The notes beneath the pieces are model-generated. The model was not told the origin of the DNA. It searched no databases and worked only from the letters and a program-made list of their open reading frames with translations. Below are positions 14,522 to 61,021 of a stretch of DNA of 64,000 nt, in pieces. The DNA is taken from positions 7,021-71,020 of the forward strand of contig PUNK01000039.1 of assembly GCA_003552585.1 (NCBI GenBank), in the 5' to 3' direction. Position 1 is the stretch's first letter, and every line of letters starts with the position of its first letter. The position numbers were made by a program, and so were the translations under genes. Source of the DNA: Thermoplasmata archaeon (GTDB taxonomy: Archaea > Thermoplasmatota > Thermoplasmata > Halarchaeoplasmatales > Halarchaeoplasmataceae).

Positions 14522-14762
14522 CTAAGCGATAGACCTTGGCTTTACCAGCGGTCTTACTCTCCCTAATTATCTCTATGATCCTTCCTTCTTTAATATCTCC
14601 CTCGATAGCCTCTAATTGACTTAAAACTGGATCTGACCTCAGTACCTTTGGGAGCTTATCTTTTGATACATGAAGCCCTGATAAGATCTCTTCTTCCTTC
14701 TCTACCGGAACCAAACGATGTTCCGGCACAAGCCTATGTTTCATTACATTTATATCCTCCAT
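14508..14762 (-). CDS. rpoH: DNA-directed RNA polymerase subunit H (Rpo5)
   Basis: '[10 protein letters not shown]...EKEEEIL...KLPKV...DPV' is the Rpb5 C-domain signature. The ORF is open to 14819, but the Met at 14762 gives the usual ~84 aa size. Confidence 0.85.
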
Positions 14763-14867
14763 TTTGATCCCCCTGACATAATACCATTTAAGTTTAGACA
14801 CATCATAGATATTCTCCATTTATCGGCTCTTCGGTTCATATCGAATTAACCCTATCTTCATGGCAGA

Positions 14868-14994
14868 TGGGCCTGTGGGGACTTTCGCGAATCGTCAAGG
14901 GACGACTCATTTCGAACCCCAGACCACCTGGTTAAAAGCCAGATGCTCTTTCCAGAAGGATTTTAAGTCCTTTACCTGGCTGAGCTACAGGCCC
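14868..14994 (-). tRNA. tRNA-Lys (anticodon UUU) carrying two non-canonical introns (D-loop ~24 nt, T-loop ~29 nt)
   Basis: The reverse complement folds as GGGCCTG/CAGGCCC acceptor, GCTC/GAGC D-stem, TCTGG-CTTTTAA-CCAGG anticodon arm and TGGGG/CCCCA T-stem. Removing the two inserts leaves a 74-nt cloverleaf. Confidence 0.8.
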
Positions 14995-15053
14995 AAATGA
15001 ATGGGTAGTTTGTGTTCTAAAGGCCGGTTTTATATAAACTTTATCCTCTGTGG

Positions 15054-16181
15054 GCTCTGTAGAAAACATCTAGCTTCCCATGTTCATTGCTTGTCGATGA
15101 GCATTGTATGCTATCATCTTGAATTCCAGCTCACGGTTTTGAGTTTTTACTTTTCTCGATCTAATAGTATTGCCCATCAATCTTTTGATAACAGAGTTAG
15201 CTGTTTCTACCTTATTCCTTTGATTGTACTTTTCTTTGTCAAAATGTCTTTTCATCATCTTCCTGTACCAACCTTTAGTTCTATACTGTTCAGAGGTAGG
15301 GAACCCCACGGCTCTGCTGTGTGGGATGATGTCACGAACAGGTACATCTTGATTATTAGGAGTCTACAGGAATCGAAAGATTCCTTCGATTCACGGAACA
15401 AGTTCCCTGTAATATTATTGATTTAGTGTTTAACATTTTCCTAGCGATCTTGTGATTAGTTCCTGAATCATACCCTTTATCTGCAATAACAATCTGTAAG
15501 TTTACACAGCTAGAAGCTTTTTTCAATAATATATCAAAGTCGATATGATCACTTGCTGGACCGGGTCTGTGTTTTGATGAAACGATAAGTTGATAATTGG
15601 TTTAAACACCAATACTCAATTTAAGATGGTAATTGTTTGAGTTCTTTCAACGCCTAGCTGCTTTAACCGTTTTGTGTAATATTTAGATCCATGTTCTAAT
15701 CTCATCTCAGTAGATTCAATTGCTAGATCGACCATATTCTCGTCACTGAACAAACAGATAATACTCTGAACTACACTTGTATCAACCCGATTCATGAATT
15801 TATTGAGAGTTATAAAATGAGGTATTTATGGCAAGCCTAGAAATTCTACAATTTTATCAGTGACCATTAACCAGTCTTTGAAATGTCTATAACTTTTTTT
15901 TATATTCTTTCAAAGCGAGCAACGTAATCTTTTGAGAGATCTTATACTTTTTTGGAGAATATTTGCGGGTATACTCGGGTAAGTTACTTGTTTTCGCCAC
16001 CACCATCACATTTTTGCAAAAACTAATATATCTCGTTTCTTTTGTCATGTCTGCATCCCTTTCCGATTGCTGGCCGTCTGACACTTAATCCGACAGCTAG
16101 CACTTGGATGCACTTATTTATTTCCATATTTAAAAGTATTGATAAAGGTATCTCGTCTGTCAAAAAGGTTTTCTACAAAGC
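15054..16181 (-). mobile_element. Decayed IS5-like insertion sequence
   Basis: Terminal inverted repeats GCTCTGTAGAAAAC (15054-15067) and GTTTTCTACAAAGC (16168-16181) match at 13/14 positions. They enclose fragmented DDE transposase reading frames. Confidence 0.6.
15070..16084 (-). pseudogene. DDE transposase (IS4/IS5-type), broken by frameshifts and stops
   Basis: N-terminal fragment 15887-16084 ('YSPKKYKISQKITLLALKEY'). Middle fragments in other frames read 'AIESTEM' and 'IADKGYDSGTNH'. C-terminal fragment 15070-15309 ('YNQRNKVETANSVIKRLMG...SRK'). Confidence 0.65.
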
Positions 16182-17148: not shown

Positions 17149-17398
17149 GAAATTGTAGGATGGGTTTCGTTTAAGGCTCTGTCTGATGTATTTTCCGTTT
17201 AAAGATCATGCTGATTAAATAAAAATTAACTTTGGTTCTTCTAAGTGGATATAATTAAAATTATTGAGGAAGACATACTGATTAATATTGCCTCATTAAC
17301 TTCGGAAGGCTACGGCCTCCCTGTGTATGCAGGGGAAGGGAACCTAATGCCAATTTGTATACAACCTCCTCTCTTTTATTTCATTGTAAATAAAATAA

Positions 17399-17483
17399 TG
17401 CGGGGGGAGGGATTTGAACCCTCGGAGACCTACGTCACAAGGTCCTAAGCCTTGCCCCTTTGGCCATGCTCGGGTACCCCCGC
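17399..17483 (-). tRNA. tRNA-Leu (anticodon UAG), class II with long variable arm, no intron
   Basis: Reverse complement is GCGGGGGTACCCGAGCATGGCCAAAGGGGCAAGGCTTAGGACCTTGTGACGTAGGTCTCCGAGGGTTCAAATCCCTCCCCCCGCA. The anticodon loop is CTTAGGA. Confidence 0.9.
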
Positions 17484-17604
17484 AGTTACGGGTGTTAACG
17501 AGTAACGAGGAGTTAGCGGAAATGAGAGGTTTTCAGTTTCAAGGACGAATAGAGATACACTGTCGTTTCCGTAAACTCATTTGCAAAGGCTAAACAATAA
17601 GGGT

Positions 17605-20350: not shown

Positions 20351-22990
20351 ATGATATTGAAAGAAATCCAGATATCTAGGAAGAGATTTCAAAAAAATCC
20401 CAATATCTACTCAATGCTACCTGTTATGGTTGTAGATGTTGATTTTGAACCGCAAATGAGAGAGGTATCAAATAAAGAGATAGAAGATTATTTGGGAAAA
20501 ATAATGCCTTCATTAAAGGATTATATACATACCCTAAATCTTTCTGACGATTTTAAGAAAGCTGAAGATGATGTATCACATCTAGAGCTCATGGGAAAAA
20601 TAACGTTAGCACTTCAAAATATGGCAGGCTCAGAGGTTACTTTCAGTACAACTCGGAAAATTGAAGAGGACTCATATCATCTAGTCATACAATATAAAAT
20701 ATCCGATGTGGCCTCTAAAGCATTGGATTACTCTTTAGAGATTATGGACAGTATAATAGATGAAAAATACAAGGAATCAGAAGAAAATATCGATCGATGG
20801 ATCTCCGAGCTAAAAGATATATATGAACGTAAAAAAATGGGGCCAAGCACAGAAGCTATCATCTCTGCTGCTGAGTCGAGAAACATCCCTTATGACCGAA
20901 CACATTCAAAATACAGCCTTTTTTCTTTAGGTTATGGAAAAGGCAGAAAACGGATTTGGGGGCCAGTCACCTCAGAAACATCGATGATAGGTGCAGATGC
21001 TGCAACAGACAAAGAGTTAACAAAAAAAATTCTTTCTGAATCTGGAATTCCTGTTCCATACGGTGGTGTTTGTAACGATCAAGATGATGCTGTAAAAATG
21101 GCCAATGAAATCGGTTACCCCGTGCTTGTGAAGCCTCTAAAAGGAAATCATGGTCGAGGAGTAATAGGTGAATTAGAAAACGAGAACGATCTGAGAAAAG
21201 CCTACGAAATCAGTAGAGATTTTGGTAACGATATCCTTGTTGAAGAATTCATCGAAGGTAAAGATTATCGCTTCCTTATCATAGACCACAAAGTTGTAGC
21301 TGTAGCAGAGAGGATACCCTCACATGTGGTGGGAGACGGGGAATCTACGATCATCGAATTGGTAGAAAAGAAAAACGAAGATCCAAGACGAGGTGATGGA
21401 CACTCGGATATACTCACAGAGATACGATTAGGGGCCGAAGAGATGTTTCATCTAGAACTACTAGGATTAGAAAAGGAATCCATTTTACCCGAAGGAAAAC
21501 TAATTTATCTGAGAACTGGTGGAAATCTAAGCACAGGAGGTACAGCCATTAACGTCACTCAGTCAGTCAACAGATGTCTTATTGATGAGGTGGAGAGGGC
21601 GAGTAGGGCGATAGATATGGATATATTAGGAGTGGATGTTATTGCACGGGATATTACAAAACCTCCTGAAAAAGCAGGATGGTATGTTATTGAAATAAAT
21701 GCAAGCCCGGGTTTGAGAATGCATATCGCACCTACAAATGGCAAACCAATACCTGCTGGCGAACACCTCATCGAATACCTTTATCCTGATGGAGATGGAA
21801 GGATCCCTATAATATCGATTACCGGTACCACCGGAAAGACTACTACTAGTAGAATGGTGGAATGGATATTTAGAAACGCTGGATATCGGACGGGTATGGC
21901 AGTAACAGGAGGGATCTATTTTGATGGAGAATGCGGTCTAAGAGGAGATACCACCGGTCCGTGGAGTGCTGGTGTAGTTCTAAATAACCCTTTAGTCGAA
22001 ATTGCGGTGTTGGAAACCGCAAGAGGAGGGATGATAAGGGATGGCCTTGGATTTGATGAGTGCCAAGTTAGTGTTCTGACCAACATCAAAGAGGACCATC
22101 TCGGTCTAGATGGTATAGAAAACCTTGATGATCTTTTTCGGGTAAAATCTTTGATATTGAAAGCAACCTCAAAAGAAGGAGATTGTGTTATAAATGCTAG
22201 GGACGATTTTGCTAGGAAAGCTTTAGAAAGGTCTAACGGTAAACCAATCCTTTTTTCCAGTCTTAAAGATGATAGAACTAAAAAATTCATTTTAGAGGGA
22301 TATAGGGTGCTTGTTTACACTGATAAAACTCTTGAATTGTACAAAGACAATGAACTGCAATCCAAATGGAAGGTGGAAGATAATCCATGGTTAGCATTGG
22401 ATATTCCTATGCACATCGAAAATACACTGGCTGCACTAGCAGCATCTAATTCTACGGGCATACCGATAAAAGAAGGACTTGGTGCATTGAAAGAGTTCAA
22501 AATGGACGAAGAGATGAATCCAGGAAGGATGAATATGTTTGAATGTGGTTGTCAATATTTTATACTAGATTATGCTCATAATCCAATAAGTATAGAGGCG
22601 GTCGGTAAACTTACTCATAAGATTTCTAATGGGCAAAGGGCTATCGTTTTAGCAGAGCCGGGCGACAGAGGAGATGATTTTTTAATGAACTGTGGATCAA
22701 CAGCTGAAAAGTGGTTTGATCGGATCTATATCACTGAGAATCCTGATATCCGTAGAGGAAGAGAGTATGGTGAAATATCCGAGATAATAAGAAAAGGAAC
22801 TGAAAATGGTAAGGTTATAATGGATATGGACAAAGCTATCAAGAGAGCGATTAAAGATTCATCTAGCGGAACAACGATCGTGTTTGCAGGACTAGATATA
22901 GGACGGGACTACCTAAAAAAGAGCTGTAGGTCAGAAGATCCAGATGGAAAAATAAGACCTTTGAGTTTTCAAGATGTTCTCAATGGATAA
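20351..22990 (+). CDS. cphA: Cyanophycin synthetase (N-domain, ATP-grasp and Mur-ligase-like domains)
   Basis: 879 aa. ATP-grasp region 'YPVLVKPLKGNHGRGV ... EEFIEGKDYRFLII'. Mur-ligase P-loop 'ISITGTTGKTTTSRM'. 'DYAHNP' near the C-terminus. A cyanophycinase gene is adjacent. Confidence 0.8.
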   Translation: MILKEIQISRKRFQKNPNIYSMLPVMVVDVDFEPQMREVSNKEIEDYLGKIMPSLKDYIHTLNLSDDFKKAEDDVSHLELMGKITLALQNMAGSEVTFSTTRKIEEDSYHLVIQYKISDVASKALDYSLEIMDSIIDEKYKESEENIDRWISELKDIYERKKMGPSTEAIISAAESRNIPYDRTHSKYSLFSLGYGKGRKRIWGPVTSETSMIGADAATDKELTKKILSESGIPVPYGGVCNDQDDAVKMANEIGYPVLVKPLKGNHGRGVIGELENENDLRKAYEISRDFGNDILVEEFIEGKDYRFLIIDHKVVAVAERIPSHVVGDGESTIIELVEKKNEDPRRGDGHSDILTEIRLGAEEMFHLELLGLEKESILPEGKLIYLRTGGNLSTGGTAINVTQSVNRCLIDEVERASRAIDMDILGVDVIARDITKPPEKAGWYVIEINASPGLRMHIAPTNGKPIPAGEHLIEYLYPDGDGRIPIISITGTTGKTTTSRMVEWIFRNAGYRTGMAVTGGIYFDGECGLRGDTTGPWSAGVVLNNPLVEIAVLETARGGMIRDGLGFDECQVSVLTNIKEDHLGLDGIENLDDLFRVKSLILKATSKEGDCVINARDDFARKALERSNGKPILFSSLKDDRTKKFILEGYRVLVYTDKTLELYKDNELQSKWKVEDNPWLALDIPMHIENTLAALAASNSTGIPIKEGLGALKEFKMDEEMNPGRMNMFECGCQYFILDYAHNPISIEAVGKLTHKISNGQRAIVLAEPGDRGDDFLMNCGSTAEKWFDRIYITENPDIRRGREYGEISEIIRKGTENGKVIMDMDKAIKRAIKDSSSGTTIVFAGLDIGRDYLKKSCRSEDPDGKIRPLSFQDVLNG

Positions 22991-23783
22991 TATTTCTTTC
23001 AACAAAATCATAGACTATATTTTCTATCAAGATATGGACTATTATCCCTTCTACAGAGATGGCCTGTCCGACCTCAACCTCAGAAACGTTTGAATGATGT
23101 ATCTGTTTTCCATCGACGATGACCACATTACCGCTGCCGATCACCTTAAAAGTATGTTCCTTGAAATCCCAAATAATACCTGTGTCCTCTCCAAGACCAA
23201 CTCCAAGTACACCTGGATTTTCAGCAACAGCATGAAATAACCTTGGAAACCTTCCTCTAGCAGAAAAGTGGGTATCAATGATAGTGTTATCTATGAAATT
23301 CAATCCTTGAGTGAGTTCTATCTCACCTGAAAGAAGGGCATTTTCAACAAGACCATAGGATATCATTGTTGCTGTCATACATACTGCACCAGCACTCGTA
23401 CCGGCAAGCACTGCACCTTCCATGAACCTTTCTCTTATAGCTTCTAAAACCTTAGTTCCACCTAACAAAGAGGTTAGTCTTAACTGGTTACCACCTGAAA
23501 AGAAGAAACCATCCGATTCATAAGTTAATGAAACAAGATCTTCATCGCTTGCATCCTTCCTTTGAAGAGGATCTATGACATCTGTTTCGACCCCAAATTC
23601 ACTGAAAATGCTAGAGTATATTTTTCCAGTACGAGGAGGGTTACCGCTAGCAGAGGGGATTATTCCTATCTTAGGTTTGCCTTCTGAAACCTTTTTGACC
23701 TCATCTATAAAAGCTTTATAAAGAGGTTCCTCTAAAGACATCTCTACATTTCCCCCCATACTTATGATTCTTCCTCGTGACAT
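22980..23783 (-). CDS. cphB: Cyanophycinase (peptidase S51)
   Basis: 'IGIIPSAS', 'FFFSGGNQLRL', nucleophile motif 'AGTSAGAVCM', 'IIDTHFSARGR' and 'GVGLGEDTG'. The gene is convergent with cphA and the tails overlap by 11 nt. Confidence 0.85.
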   Translation of the reverse strand: MSRGRIISMGGNVEMSLEEPLYKAFIDEVKKVSEGKPKIGIIPSASGNPPRTGKIYSSIFSEFGVETDVIDPLQRKDASDEDLVSLTYESDGFFFSGGNQLRLTSLLGGTKVLEAIRERFMEGAVLAGTSAGAVCMTATMISYGLVENALLSGEIELTQGLNFIDNTIIDTHFSARGRFPRLFHAVAENPGVLGVGLGEDTGIIWDFKEHTFKVIGSGNVVIVDGKQIHHSNVSEVEVGQAISVEGIIVHILIENIVYDFVERNIIH

Positions 23784-24020
23784 TTATACTACCTTTTTAT
23801 GACTTGCTATGGCATTTAACAACTAGTGTATAAATGTTTTACTCTAAAAAAGGAAAACTACACCAAAATGTAATGAAAAAGGGGATTAAAACCTTCTAAA
23901 GCTCTAAATAACTAGGGTTACTTTCTGTTTTCTTATTTATCAAATAAAAAACGTGCCAAGGAATCAAAGATTCCACTTACTTTTTAATCTTCTTCTCCAT
24001 CACTCATAATATGTAAAAAG

Positions 24021-24106
24021 CGCCGAGGAGGAGATTCGAACTCCTGTGGCGCAACGCGCCAGTGGCTCTCGAGGCCACCGCCTTGGCCGGGCTAGGCTAC
24101 CTCGGC
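24021..24106 (-). tRNA. tRNA-Ser (anticodon CGA), class II, no intron
   Basis: Reverse complement is GCCGAGGTAGCCTAGCCCGGCCAAGGCGGTGGCCTCGAGAGCCACTGGCGCGTTGCGCCACAGGAGTTCGAATCTCCTCCTCGGCG. The anticodon loop is CTCGAGA. Confidence 0.9.
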
Positions 24107-42640: not shown

Positions 42641-44509
42641 ATGGCGAGGATAGGAAATTTTAAATCCTCTCACGGGACAGTTGAAACACCCAATATAATG
42701 CCAGTTATCAATCCCAACCTCGTTGCGATATCACCCAGAAGATTGTGGGAAGAATTTAGAACCAAAATCATCATCACCAATTCATACATAATAAAGAGGA
42801 CTGAGGGATTGAAAGATGAGGCATTGGAAAAGGGTCTTCATGATATATTGGATTTTCCTGGAACCATCATGACCGATTCCGGCACATTTCAATCTCACGT
42901 GTACGGAGAAGTTGATTTAGACCCGATTGAAATAATAACTTTCCAGGAAGCGATAGGATCTGATATATCAACCATTTTGGACCGTTTTACCGAGCCAGAT
43001 GATACACGGGAAGTTGCTGAACAAAAGGTTAAGGACACCATACAAAGGGCAAGACAGGCGACCTCTGAATGTGAAGGGAGTATAGCGTTACCAATACAAG
43101 GCTCTATATATCCAGATCTGCGTGAAAAGTGTGCAAAAGTCTTAGGAGACTTACCCGGAACCCTTTACCCGATAGGAGGGGTGGTACCTCTACTGGAGGA
43201 TTATCGTTATGATGAGCTGGTAAAGGTGGTAATGAGTTCAAAAAAAGGGTTAGGACCTAAAGGTCCTGTACACCTGTTTGGAGCTGGACATCCAATGATC
43301 TATCCGCTTGCAGTACTGATGGGCTGTGATCTATTCGATTCAAGTTCTTATATCAAATATGCAAGAAGAGGAGATCTAATGTATCCCGATGGAACTAGGA
43401 ATATATCTGATCTAGAATATCTTGCTTGTAATTGTCCAGTATGTAGAAATACGGATATTGATGGTTTAAAAGATGAAAGTGATGAAAAAAGGACGATGAT
43501 GTTGGCAGAACATAACCTGTGGATAAGTTATATGGAGATAGGTAGAGTAAAACAAGCGATAAGAGAACACTCCTTATGGGAGCTGGTCGAACAACGAGCC
43601 CGAGGGCATCCATCTCTATTAGACGCTTTAAACACGATCCATGGTTATTGGAAATTTATGGAAAAATTTGAACCTAGAGGGAGAAGACGAGCTTTATTTT
43701 ACACTGGTGAATTTACTTTCAATAGACCGTTAGTGAAGAGGATTCTACACTGGATAGAAGAAGATTACTCACCTCCAGTCAAAGATGCACCATCTATTGT
43801 ATTCAATGGAAAATATCTTGGTAAACCTTACAGCAGATATCTCACAAAGGAATTAGAATATCTACTTCCCGATTATATGGTTAATCTATTGGTGAATACA
43901 CCTTTTGGCTTAATACCATTGGAATTGGACGGGGTATATCCTATAGCACAATCTCTGTTTCCAGGATATGTGTCTTATGGAGAGATCAAGGATCTCGTTG
44001 TATGGAATGGTAAGGAAACTTTGGAATCTTTAGAAAAGGGAAAAGGTATGAGTCTTGATGAGATGCGTGTCAGAAGCATATCGGACTTTCAATTCTGCAA
44101 AGGTGCCGGGAGTATTTTATCTGATGGTAAGCTGGAGTTCGTTTACAATCGAAAAGGGGGCATTAACAACATTTTGCTTGATGAAAGACACATATTATCT
44201 GTGAGAGCCTATGACGGTTTATTTTCTCTGAAAATACCAGGTGCAACACTTTTAAAAGACAAACTACCTCCACCTATACTCAGGATCAAAGTGAATGATG
44301 ATAGTGCAGAGTACAACTCACAAGGTAAGAACGTTTTTGCTAAATTTGTTTTAGAGGCATGGGAAGGAATAAGACCTAGTGATGAGGTATTAATAGTCGA
44401 TCGGAATGATGATCTAGTAGCTGTGGCAAGAGCTATGCTAAACAAGGAAGAAATGAATGTTTTTGATAAGGGTATGGCTGCCCGGGTGCGCCAAGGTATA
44501 GAAAGATAA
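42641..44509 (+). CDS. tgtA: Archaeal tRNA-guanine(15) transglycosylase (archaeosine TGT) with a C-terminal PUA domain
   Basis: 'IITNSYII', 'MTDSGTFQ', 'PIGGVVPLLE', 'HLFGAGHP', Zn site 'CNCPVC' and 'LAEHNLW'. The true start is probably upstream of the first ATG (see findings). Confidence 0.9.
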   Translation: MARIGNFKSSHGTVETPNIMPVINPNLVAISPRRLWEEFRTKIIITNSYIIKRTEGLKDEALEKGLHDILDFPGTIMTDSGTFQSHVYGEVDLDPIEIITFQEAIGSDISTILDRFTEPDDTREVAEQKVKDTIQRARQATSECEGSIALPIQGSIYPDLREKCAKVLGDLPGTLYPIGGVVPLLEDYRYDELVKVVMSSKKGLGPKGPVHLFGAGHPMIYPLAVLMGCDLFDSSSYIKYARRGDLMYPDGTRNISDLEYLACNCPVCRNTDIDGLKDESDEKRTMMLAEHNLWISYMEIGRVKQAIREHSLWELVEQRARGHPSLLDALNTIHGYWKFMEKFEPRGRRRALFYTGEFTFNRPLVKRILHWIEEDYSPPVKDAPSIVFNGKYLGKPYSRYLTKELEYLLPDYMVNLLVNTPFGLIPLELDGVYPIAQSLFPGYVSYGEIKDLVVWNGKETLESLEKGKGMSLDEMRVRSISDFQFCKGAGSILSDGKLEFVYNRKGGINNILLDERHILSVRAYDGLFSLKIPGATLLKDKLPPPILRIKVNDDSAEYNSQGKNVFAKFVLEAWEGIRPSDEVLIVDRNDDLVAVARAMLNKEEMNVFDKGMAARVRQGIER

Positions 44510-44512
44510 GTT

Positions 44513-45019
44513 TTACTCGTCTAAAATCTCTATAATTGAAGGATCCAATTTTTTAGGTCCCTCATCCTCTTTTTTTACTATATCACTATTGCTTCTTTTT
44601 ACAGGGCTCCAGAATCTAGCATCACACTTTTTACACTCATTTGAATATTCATCTACGGGATTTCCGCATTCAGGGCACTCAAAATCACGTTCTTCAACAA
44701 TAAATTTCTCTCCGCATTCTGAACATTCTTCTTCGTCTCTTGAAACGACGATACCACAAACAGGACAGAGGAAAGTATCCATCTCGAACTCTGCACCACA
44801 TCCATAGCATCGCGGTGTTTCTCCGTCTACGTGTTCACCGCAACGAGGGCATTCAAAATCATCTTGTCTGACACTTTCACGCACTTTTAATTCCTTCTTG
44901 GGTGATTTTTTATCCGTTTCATAATAATACAATAGATAAATTAACGTGATAGATAAACCAACGACGATAACAATCAAGGGTAACGTATTTCCTTCCAATA
45001 TAGTAGAATATAAGTTCAT
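44513..45019 (-). CDS. Membrane-anchored protein with three tandem zinc-ribbon units
   Basis: N-terminal TM helix. Then 'FECPRCG...CYGCGAEF', 'FLCPVCG...CSECGEKF' and 'FECPECG...CKKCDARF'. Confidence 0.6.
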   Translation of the reverse strand: MNLYSTILEGNTLPLIVIVVGLSITLIYLLYYYETDKKSPKKELKVRESVRQDDFECPRCGEHVDGETPRCYGCGAEFEMDTFLCPVCGIVVSRDEEECSECGEKFIVEERDFECPECGNPVDEYSNECKKCDARFWSPVKRSNSDIVKKEDEGPKKLDPSIIEILDE

Positions 45020-60211: not shown

Positions 60212-61021
60212 TCAGATAAGAACCTGCATACATCCCGAGCATGGCCCCATATACGGTAAACTAGCTCCTAACGGAAGGTCAGCAAGGGCCATACCGTGTA
60301 CTTCCATAAGATAAACAGGTAACCATAAAGTAAGTCCCCCCATCACTCTGTTGATACTCCCTTTACCAGTGGGTTCGTTGGTTCTGCCCTGATGGACGAA
60401 GCTTATATTTATAGCACCCACGGTATCGCGATGTTCTTCCAGACCGCAATCTTTGCACTTAAACAACCTACCTCTTCTGACTTTATCTTCAGAACCACAT
60501 CTTGGACAAATACTGCTCGTACCACGTTCATCGATCAGTTCTACTGCTATTCCGTAGTTCTCAACCGTCCATCGTATCCTATCTGTTAGATACTTGTGAG
60601 ACCAATAGTTGTGTACCATACAGTCGGCTTTGTTGTTCCACTTCTCGTTCTCTCTTATACCTGTCATGTCACACATCACTACAGTATCCACGCCTGCCTG
60701 ATAGCACCGCTCGATGAAGTCGTGTGCGATCTTCCTTACAGCGTCTTTGAACTTCCTCTTACGCTGTCTGAACAACCTCTTTATCCGTTCCGATGTGTAC
60801 CTATCGTTCTCTTCCTTGGTCTGTGACTTTGACTTGCCTATCTGCTTGTTGTACAGCCACCATTCCGAGAGTAACGGTTTTCCGTCATAGGCTATCGTTT
60901 TATCCACACCTTCGATTTTAGCGGTGATTGGGTATATTACGCCTAAGTCGACGAATGCATGTAGGATTCTTATCAGGTCTCTTCTAGGGAACGAAGATTG
61001 CCTATCCTTTGAGTATTTCAA
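60212..61021 (-). mobile_element. tnpB: IS200/IS605-family TnpB (OrfB) remnant lacking the N-terminal ~150 aa
   Basis: Zn finger 'CPRCGSEDKVRRGRLFKCKDCG', RuvC-III-like 'HRDTVGAINI' and RuvC-I-like 'IEGVD'. The ORF opens only 4 codons upstream of a TTG, and no tnpA is present. Confidence 0.7.

Follow-up and report, generated by a model that had tools for sequence, protein, structure and literature searches.

The minus strand of the window, by which we mean the whole stretch of 64,000 nucleotides that was analysed, was found to encode a tRNA-Lys(UUU) gene of 127 nt (14868..14994) that is interrupted by an intron of 24 nt at position 20/21 and another of 29 nt at position 59/60. The gene has A73 as its discriminator and does not encode the CCA end. 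Read in the direction of the gene, exon 1 (tRNA positions 1–20; 14974..14994) contains the 5′ strand of the acceptor stem, U8 and A9, the 5′ strand of the D-stem and the D-loop from A14 to U20. Intron 1 (AAAGGACUUAAAAUCCUUCUGGAA; 14950..14973) follows in the D-loop and was the shortest among the 67 distinct D-loop introns compared. Exon 2 (positions 21–59; 14911..14949) supplies the 3′ strand of the D-stem, the anticodon arm, the variable loop, the 5′ strand of the T-stem and the T-loop from U54 to A59, and includes the anticodon UUU (14934..14936), which was called by ARAGORN on the spliced form. Intron 2 (AUGAGUCGUCCCUUGACGAUUCGCGAAAG; 14882..14910) lies in the T-loop and is followed by exon 3 (positions 60–73; 14868..14881), which provides U60, the 3′ strands of the T-stem and acceptor stem, and A73. 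The ends of both introns were placed by the bulge-helix-bulge (BHB) cleavage rule.

Deletion in silico of AAGGACTTAAAATCCTTCTGGAAA (or the equivalent insert shifted by one base) and ATGAGTCGTCCCTTGACGATTCGCGAAAG left a 74-nt sequence that ARAGORN called as tRNA-Lys(ttt) with a perfect cloverleaf. Inspection of this product revealed a 7-bp acceptor stem, a GCUC/GAGC D-stem, a D-loop of AGCCAGGUA, a 5-bp anticodon stem, a variable loop of UGGUC, a T-loop of UUCGAAU and the discriminator A73; the exons were intact and contained the universal tRNA bases. An earlier note on this DNA had parsed the same minus-strand segment as a tRNA-Lys(UUU) with two non-canonical introns of about 24 and 29 nt and none at 37/38. 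Its parse reproduces the 127-nt string exactly, its inserts and 74-nt mature sequence were recovered by the in-silico splicing, and its identification of the gene is borne out by the spliced cloverleaf and the ARAGORN call. The note had also allowed a register-shifted form of the D-loop insert, and a shift of intron 1 by one base does give an identical spliced product.

The unspliced gene was not called by ARAGORN with the intron option on or off, and had no Rfam match at the gathering score, nor at E ≤ 5 in a scan of the whole window. A local Rfam scan of the locus returned only a partial tRNA match (18.6 bits) whose D-loop contained an insertion of 30 nt. Genomes of this group that are annotated by Rfam and ARAGORN alone could consequently seem to lack tRNA-Lys(UUU). 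The other two tRNA genes of the window, Leu(UAG) at 17398–17484 and Ser(CGA) at 24020–24106, both matched the full tRNA model and were intron-free by ARAGORN and Rfam, as the earlier note had read them. Group I and group II self-splicing introns typically occur in the anticodon loop of tRNA genes and have a ribozyme core of hundreds of nucleotides; they were ruled out here, as the inserts are only 24 and 29 nt long and gave no Rfam intron matches.

Downstream of the tRNA gene, Pfam analysis identified an RNA-polymerase operon on the same strand, consisting of rpoH (14819–14508), an unsplit rpoB (14521–10859), rpoA′ (10862–8193) and rpoA″ (8193–6760), followed by genes for L30e (6696–6412) and a NusA-like KH protein (6415–5981). 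The 3′ end of the tRNA-Lys gene is 48 nt upstream of the start codon of rpoH, and the neighbouring positions of the two genes are conserved across the Thermoplasmata. Upstream of the tRNA, a predicted archaeal promoter-like BRE/TATA element, GGATAAAGTTTATATAAAA, was read from the sequence at 15027..15046 (minus strand). Its TATA box ends 37 nt upstream of the first nucleotide of the tRNA, and a comparison of upstream regions showed the element to be near-identical in the closest relatives. There is no obvious second promoter in the spacer between the tRNA and rpoH, and the RNA-polymerase operon may be co-transcribed with tRNA-Lys and freed by tRNA processing. Directly downstream of the tRNA, overlapping the rpoH start, there was a weak Rfam match to the C/D-box snoRNA family TtnuCD10 (14719–14864, minus strand; 19.2 bits, E = 2.5), which is probably due to chance. 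A 141-aa ORF on the opposite strand (15001–15426) starts 7 nt from the 5′ end of the tRNA and overlaps the promoter region; it had no Pfam match and may be spurious.

The operon rpoH-rpoB-rpoA′-rpoA″ and the Thermoplasmata relatives of the sequence showed the host to be archaeal. RpoB was 73–80% identical to that of Thermoplasmata metagenome-assembled genomes (MAGs) of soda-lake and salt-lake origin, Ca. Halarchaeoplasma and Ca. Natronoplasma among them, and approximately 62% identical to that of the Methanomassiliicoccales; the window has a G + C content of 40.9% and encodes a mildly acidic proteome. Judged by the RpoB identities, G + C content and proteome acidity, the host belongs, within the Thermoplasmata, to the hypersaline "Haloplasmatales"-like group, which has been counted among the extreme halophiles (bioRxiv 10.1101/2023.07.03.547478). 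The Thermoproteales or deep-lineage setting that the earlier note had in mind for such tRNAs does not apply here. Further along the window, a gene for a cyanophycin-synthetase-like protein (20351–22990, plus strand; Cyanophycin_syn N-terminal domain, ATP-grasp, and Mur ligase M and C domains) adjoins a peptidase S51 (cyanophycinase family) gene (22980–23783, minus strand). Additionally, the window encodes a possibly truncated TnpB/IS605 OrfB-like protein of 269 aa (60212–61021, minus strand) with OrfB_IS605 and Cas12f1-like TNB domains, and a zinc-ribbon protein (44513–45019) with a weak TNB-domain match.

In canonical archaeal introns the 4-bp central helix of the BHB motif includes the first two bases of the anticodon (PMC4090602), which puts the cut between the second and third nucleotides of each 3-nt bulge. 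Both introns of the window gene showed this 3-4-3 arrangement, in which a helix of 4 bp separates two 3-nt bulges and each bulge contains a splice site. The minimum-free-energy fold of the pre-tRNA (−58.2 kcal/mol, z = −5.5) contained both intron hairpins, and none of 200 shuffled sequences folded as well. Folding of the junctions, on which the earlier note had staked its reading, thus gave a BHB core at each intron. The fold had no D-stem, and the ideal BHB structure had an energy of −53.1 kcal/mol compared to the −58.2 kcal/mol of the minimum; the missing D-stem counts for little, as the predicted minimum of the spliced tRNA is not a cloverleaf either. Pair probabilities were 0.98–0.99 for the central helix of the D-loop motif and 0.78–0.87 for that of the T-loop motif.

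The T-loop core (14881..14916, minus strand) was recovered from the fold, the pair probabilities, covariation and RNAalifold. In its central helix (H), UUCG (14916–14913; positions 54–57) is paired with the intron sequence CGAA (14887–14884). The 5′ bulge is AAA (14912–14910; A58, A59 and A), the helix h′ has 9 bp and is closed by a CCUU tetraloop (14909–14888), and the 3′ bulge is AGU (14883–14881; A, G and U60). As the central helix is stacked directly on the T-stem, so that the outer helices are continuous with the bulges on both sides, the T-loop motif is a strict hBHBh′. The earlier note had drawn a different pairing here, of CGAA with UUCG around an AUGAG bulge, but this was 8.2 kcal/mol worse than the strict BHB beside the T-stem and is not kept in relatives, whose T-loop junctions fit UUCG/CGAA or UUCG/CGGA.

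The same lines of evidence (fold, base-pair probabilities, covariation and RNAalifold) defined the D-loop core at 14949..14979 (minus strand). It consists of the central helix CCAG (14979–14976; C16, C17, A17a and G18) paired with CUGG (14955–14952), the 5′ bulge GUA (14975–14973; G19, U20 and A), the helix h′ AAGGA/UCCUU with a 7-nt loop (14972–14956) and the 3′ bulge AAA (14951–14949; A, A and A21). Both helices and the GUA bulge had been drawn correctly in the earlier note. A14 and G15 (14981–14980) form an unpaired spacer that separates the D-stem from the central helix, opposite the 3′ bulge, and that was kept in all 45 orthologues of the D-loop junction alignment. The 3′ site is hence a 2 × 3 internal loop, and the D-loop intron belongs to the relaxed HBh′ class rather than to the strict hBHBh′ form. 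The relaxed BHB-like geometry that the earlier note had proposed for both inserts therefore stands for the D-loop, whereas the T-loop motif is strict. Elsewhere in the window (42641–44509, plus strand) there is a gene for an archaeosine tRNA-guanine transglycosylase with TGT, C2 and PUA domains. The target base of this enzyme in archaeal tRNAs is G15, which in this precursor is left unpaired, together with A14, across from the 3′ bulge of the D-loop intron.

Orthologues were collected from 80 fetched Thermoplasmata RpoB loci and from a pattern scan that added 44 assemblies, which together gave 93 distinct gene sequences. Of the 80 fetched loci, 69 had a parsable tRNA-Lys(UUU) immediately before rpoH-rpoB, and dozens of related genomes have the interrupted gene at this syntenic position. 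In all 44 assemblies of the pattern scan, the anticodon arm was found in a single gene per assembly. After in-silico splicing, all 93 orthologues were called as tRNA-Lys(ttt) by ARAGORN. Their introns, from zero to three per gene, were found only at 20/21, 37/38 and 59/60. Introns in both the D-loop and the T-loop, as in the window gene, were present in 50 distinct genes and no introns in 17; the remaining genes had introns in the D-loop, anticodon loop and T-loop (11), in the T-loop only (9), in the D-loop and anticodon loop (4) or in the D-loop only (2). The loci with three introns (L013, L019, L021–L025, L027, L035, L042 and L061) were mostly from Methanomassiliicoccales and related Thermoplasmata MAGs, and in one of these, L035, introns of 51, 67 and 34 nt made up a gene of approximately 226 nt.

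The 3-4-3 geometry was kept in essentially every orthologue. The junction alignments were made in the fixed, proposed register and are biased towards it; in that register 94% of the cells at the D-loop junctions were paired, with 82 double-changed cells compared to 25 in shuffles, and 89.8% of those at the T-loop junctions, with 101 double-changed cells compared to 37 in shuffles. At neither junction did any of 500 shuffles score as high, and controls in which the register was slid dropped to 25–69% paired. The central helix of the D-loop motif occurred as CCAG/CUGG, CUAG/CUAG, GUAG/CUAC, CCCG/CGGG, UCCG/CGGG and GUCG/CGAU. RNAalifold on a MAFFT alignment of 18 sequences of the clade independently returned the cloverleaf, including the D-stem, together with both 3-4-3 motifs.

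A neighbour-joining tree of RpoB, which is rough and has five unreliable long-branch placements, put the window as sister to three loci (L001, L008 and L048) that have the T-loop intron only; the next groups out have both introns. The parsimonious reading is that the D-loop intron was retained in the window and precisely lost in this sister group. Losses of a single intron were scattered over the tree. Some public contigs appear to be labelled at odds with their contents. An archaeal RpoB and tRNA-Lys were found under a 'Faecalibacterium' title (L064), a Haloplasmatales-type tRNA-Lys under 'Aenigmatarchaeota' (L258), and archaeal EndA under 'Sphaerochaeta' (L210) and 'Eggerthellaceae' (L221). 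These labels are probably the result of binning errors.

No gene for the splicing endonuclease EndA was detected in the window by Pfam analysis of 49 ORFs or by tblastn, or by tblastn in the fetched RpoB loci and pattern-scan loci. A first genome scan for EndA, led by an Archaeoglobus profile, recovered only Archaeoglobi and Methanosarcinales. The sequence of Methanocaldococcus jannaschii EndA, residues 9–179 of which are identical to PDB entry 1A79, was used as query and, together with PDB-derived fragments, led to Thermoplasmatota EndA proteins. A second scan returned EndA from Methanomassiliicoccales and other Thermoplasmata and none from Haloplasmatales-like assemblies, and 80 EndA loci were fetched from the former two. 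Analysis of these revealed EndA to be a single polypeptide of approximately 350 aa with two complete N + C endonuclease repeats. The sequences are of the α'2-type architecture, and the N-terminal repeat appears to be without the catalytic histidine. The catalytic repeat contains neither the 11-residue Crenarchaea-specific loop of S. tokodaii and Fervidicoccus nor the C-terminal insertion of the ARMAN-2 type, between the catalytic Tyr and His, so that the broad-specificity endonuclease that the earlier note had expected finds no counterpart in these relatives. The same two-repeat type is present in Methanomassiliicoccus luminyensis and Ca. M. intestinalis, and assembly DATEUA01 contains both a three-intron tRNA-Lys (L024) and a two-repeat EndA (L198).

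For an EndA of the Haloplasmatales-like group, 150 cluster representatives were screened for acidic proteins and the contigs of two were looked up. The loci of these two candidates have a G + C content of 55–59%, compared to 37–52% for loci of the clade, and could not be assigned to the window's order; one of the two, a singleton, has additional residues inserted between its catalytic Tyr and His. The acidic two-repeat EndA P0130 (L285/L286; GCA_028279645.1) has no relative above 48% identity, and contains approximately nine extra residues (FRAYQFDPNDDSLSEMDDKAHARY) between the catalytic Tyr and His, where ARMAN-2 has its insertion.

Considered together, the intact exons, the folds and the orthologues make it very probable that the locus is a tRNA-Lys(UUU) gene that functions and is spliced in its Thermoplasmata host. 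It is also probably the only copy in the source genome, 64 kb of which is visible. That limited view, and the failure of standard tRNA finders to recognise the gene, would suit a decaying pseudo-tRNA with two disabling insertions, in a genome where another gene supplies tRNA-Lys(UUU). We consider this highly improbable, as the exons have kept the universal tRNA bases, the same two insertion sites are used in about 60 distinct orthologues in which compensatory changes maintain the BHB geometry, the promoter is conserved in the closest relatives and the gene is single-copy in the related assemblies. The conserved use of the sites and the compensatory changes that preserve the 3-4-3 geometry point to a functional and anciently interrupted gene, not a pseudogene. 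The extent of intron 1 could also be read differently, because the near-repeats CCAGGUA and CUGGAAA flank its hairpin and the sequence would permit CCAGGUAAAGGACUUAAAAUCCUU to be excised at 15/16, leaving a D-loop of AGCUGGAAA that also retains the GG. This register has hardly any likelihood: none of its splice sites would fall within a 3-nt bulge, the D-loop of intron-less orthologues is AGCCAGGUA or AGCUAGGUA, which matches 20/21, and the covariation supports CCAG/CUGG as the central helix.

The position of the gene raises another reading, in which it serves chiefly as a tRNA-like leader for the processing or regulation of the RNA-polymerase operon and the inserts modulate processing of the co-transcript rather than being ordinary introns. 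The 48-nt distance to the rpoH start codon, across a spacer without an obvious second promoter, and the class-wide adjacency of the two genes are in its favour. Intron-less orthologues at the same position, however, are ordinary tRNA-Lys genes and the sole copy found per assembly, and the inserts have the precise geometry of BHB introns; a leader role could add to the function as a tRNA but not replace it. As a replacement for that function, such a role seems very unlikely. The preferred reading remains that of a functional tRNA-Lys(UUU) gene whose two inserts are spliced out.

Transcription of this gene, which lies immediately before the RNA-polymerase operon, would start from its own conserved TATA promoter, and the 127-nt precursor would fold into a cloverleaf with two extra BHB hairpins. 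EndA would then cut after the second nucleotide of each bulge, breaking four bonds at the U20|A21 and A59|U60 junctions. An RtcB-type ligase would join the three exons into the 74-nt tRNA, to which CCA would be added afterwards. We infer the expression of the window gene, its cleavage by EndA and the ligation of its exons, with the cutting and RtcB-type ligation steps taken from established archaeal tRNA splicing. α'2 enzymes have been reported to require a strict 3-4-3 hBHBh′ motif (PMC3239211), a requirement that the T-loop intron, as predicted, fits. The α'2 EndA of Archaeoglobus fulgidus did not efficiently remove the HBh′ intron at 20b/21 of Methanopyrus kandleri (PMC5829648), and given that assay the D-loop 3′ site, with its predicted 2 × 3 internal loop, is the weak point of the proposed mechanism. 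Possibly the α'2 enzymes of Thermoplasmata tolerate the A14–G15 spacer; the order of splicing or contacts with the tRNA body might also help removal of the D-loop intron, or an unseen factor might take part in it.

The closest parallel to the D-loop intron is the M. kandleri pre-tRNA-Glu(UUC), which has an HBh′ intron at 20b/21 and a second intron at 37/38 (PMC5829648; Kaneta et al. 2018). Both are euryarchaeal tRNAs with a D-loop intron just before A21, a well-formed 5′ bulge and a relaxed 3′ side, the likeness being one of position and motif class, and both are associated with an endonuclease without a specific loop, which here was seen in the EndA of relatives. The M. kandleri enzyme is (αβ)2, in contrast to the α'2 type found in relatives of the window organism; its second intron is at 37/38 and not at 59/60, and the D-loop intron of the window type is conserved across a whole class. 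The T-loop intron resembles those at 59/60 in the T-loop of tRNA-Pro and tRNA-Cys of ARMAN-2, one case of which is a strict hBHBh′ (PMC3239211). Unlike the window, where the other two tRNAs are uninterrupted, ARMAN-2 has more than half of its tRNA genes disrupted, and it possesses a three-unit ε2 endonuclease with specific loops. Multiple BHB introns per tRNA at non-canonical positions, up to three as in the Thermoplasmata orthologues, are described for Thermoproteales and other TACK archaea by Sugahara et al. (2007, 2008), as cited in PMC4090602. Those hosts have (αβ)2 enzymes with the Crenarchaea-specific loop and many relaxed motifs, whereas here the related endonucleases are without the loop and the 3-4-3 geometry is retained in essentially every orthologue. 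Canonical euryarchaeal introns at 37/38 share the BHB core and the cleavage rule with the window gene, and some Methanomassiliicoccales orthologues of its tRNA-Lys have a 37/38 intron as well; the window gene itself has none there, and is interrupted in the D-loop and T-loop instead.

The two intron positions and the two classes of motif are already known from M. kandleri, ARMAN-2 and the Thermoproteales. The literature searched contained no account of tRNA introns in Thermoplasmatota, nor one that joined Methanomassiliicoccales with a tRNA intron and a splicing endonuclease. A class-wide conserved pattern of up to three introns in a euryarchaeal α'2 lineage thus appears to be undescribed in that literature, although tRNA-gene databases may list the genes. 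The "Cluster II" euryarchaea have been described as exclusively α'2 (PMC5829648). In the published picture, α'2 euryarchaea have only one intron per tRNA, at the canonical position, and introns at other positions, or several per tRNA, go with endonucleases that bear specific loops. The class-wide pattern departs from this rule linking endonuclease type and intron type. We tentatively suggest, as a possibility that is open to considerable doubt, that a tRNA-Lys(UUU) with introns at as many as three fixed sites (20/21, 37/38 and 59/60) is ancestral to a large part of the Thermoplasmata, including the Methanomassiliicoccales, the hypersaline Haloplasmatales-like group and others, and has been maintained by a two-repeat α'2 EndA without the known broad-specificity loops.

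The pattern offers a natural test of the strictness of α'2 enzymes, for which Methanomassiliicoccus luminyensis is a named species with an EndA sequence on record. It also provides a case for studying the gain and loss of tRNA introns, in which one gene with near-perfect 3-4-3 geometry can be followed across a class. If the suggestion is correct, an α'2 enzyme would cut a D-loop site of the HBh′ class by a mode of recognition that has so far not been described or, alternatively, 'strict' enzymes in general would accept a 2-nt spacer opposite the bulge. In both cases tRNA-Lys(UUU) of the Thermoplasmata would be a clear exception to the rule of single canonical introns in α'2 euryarchaea.
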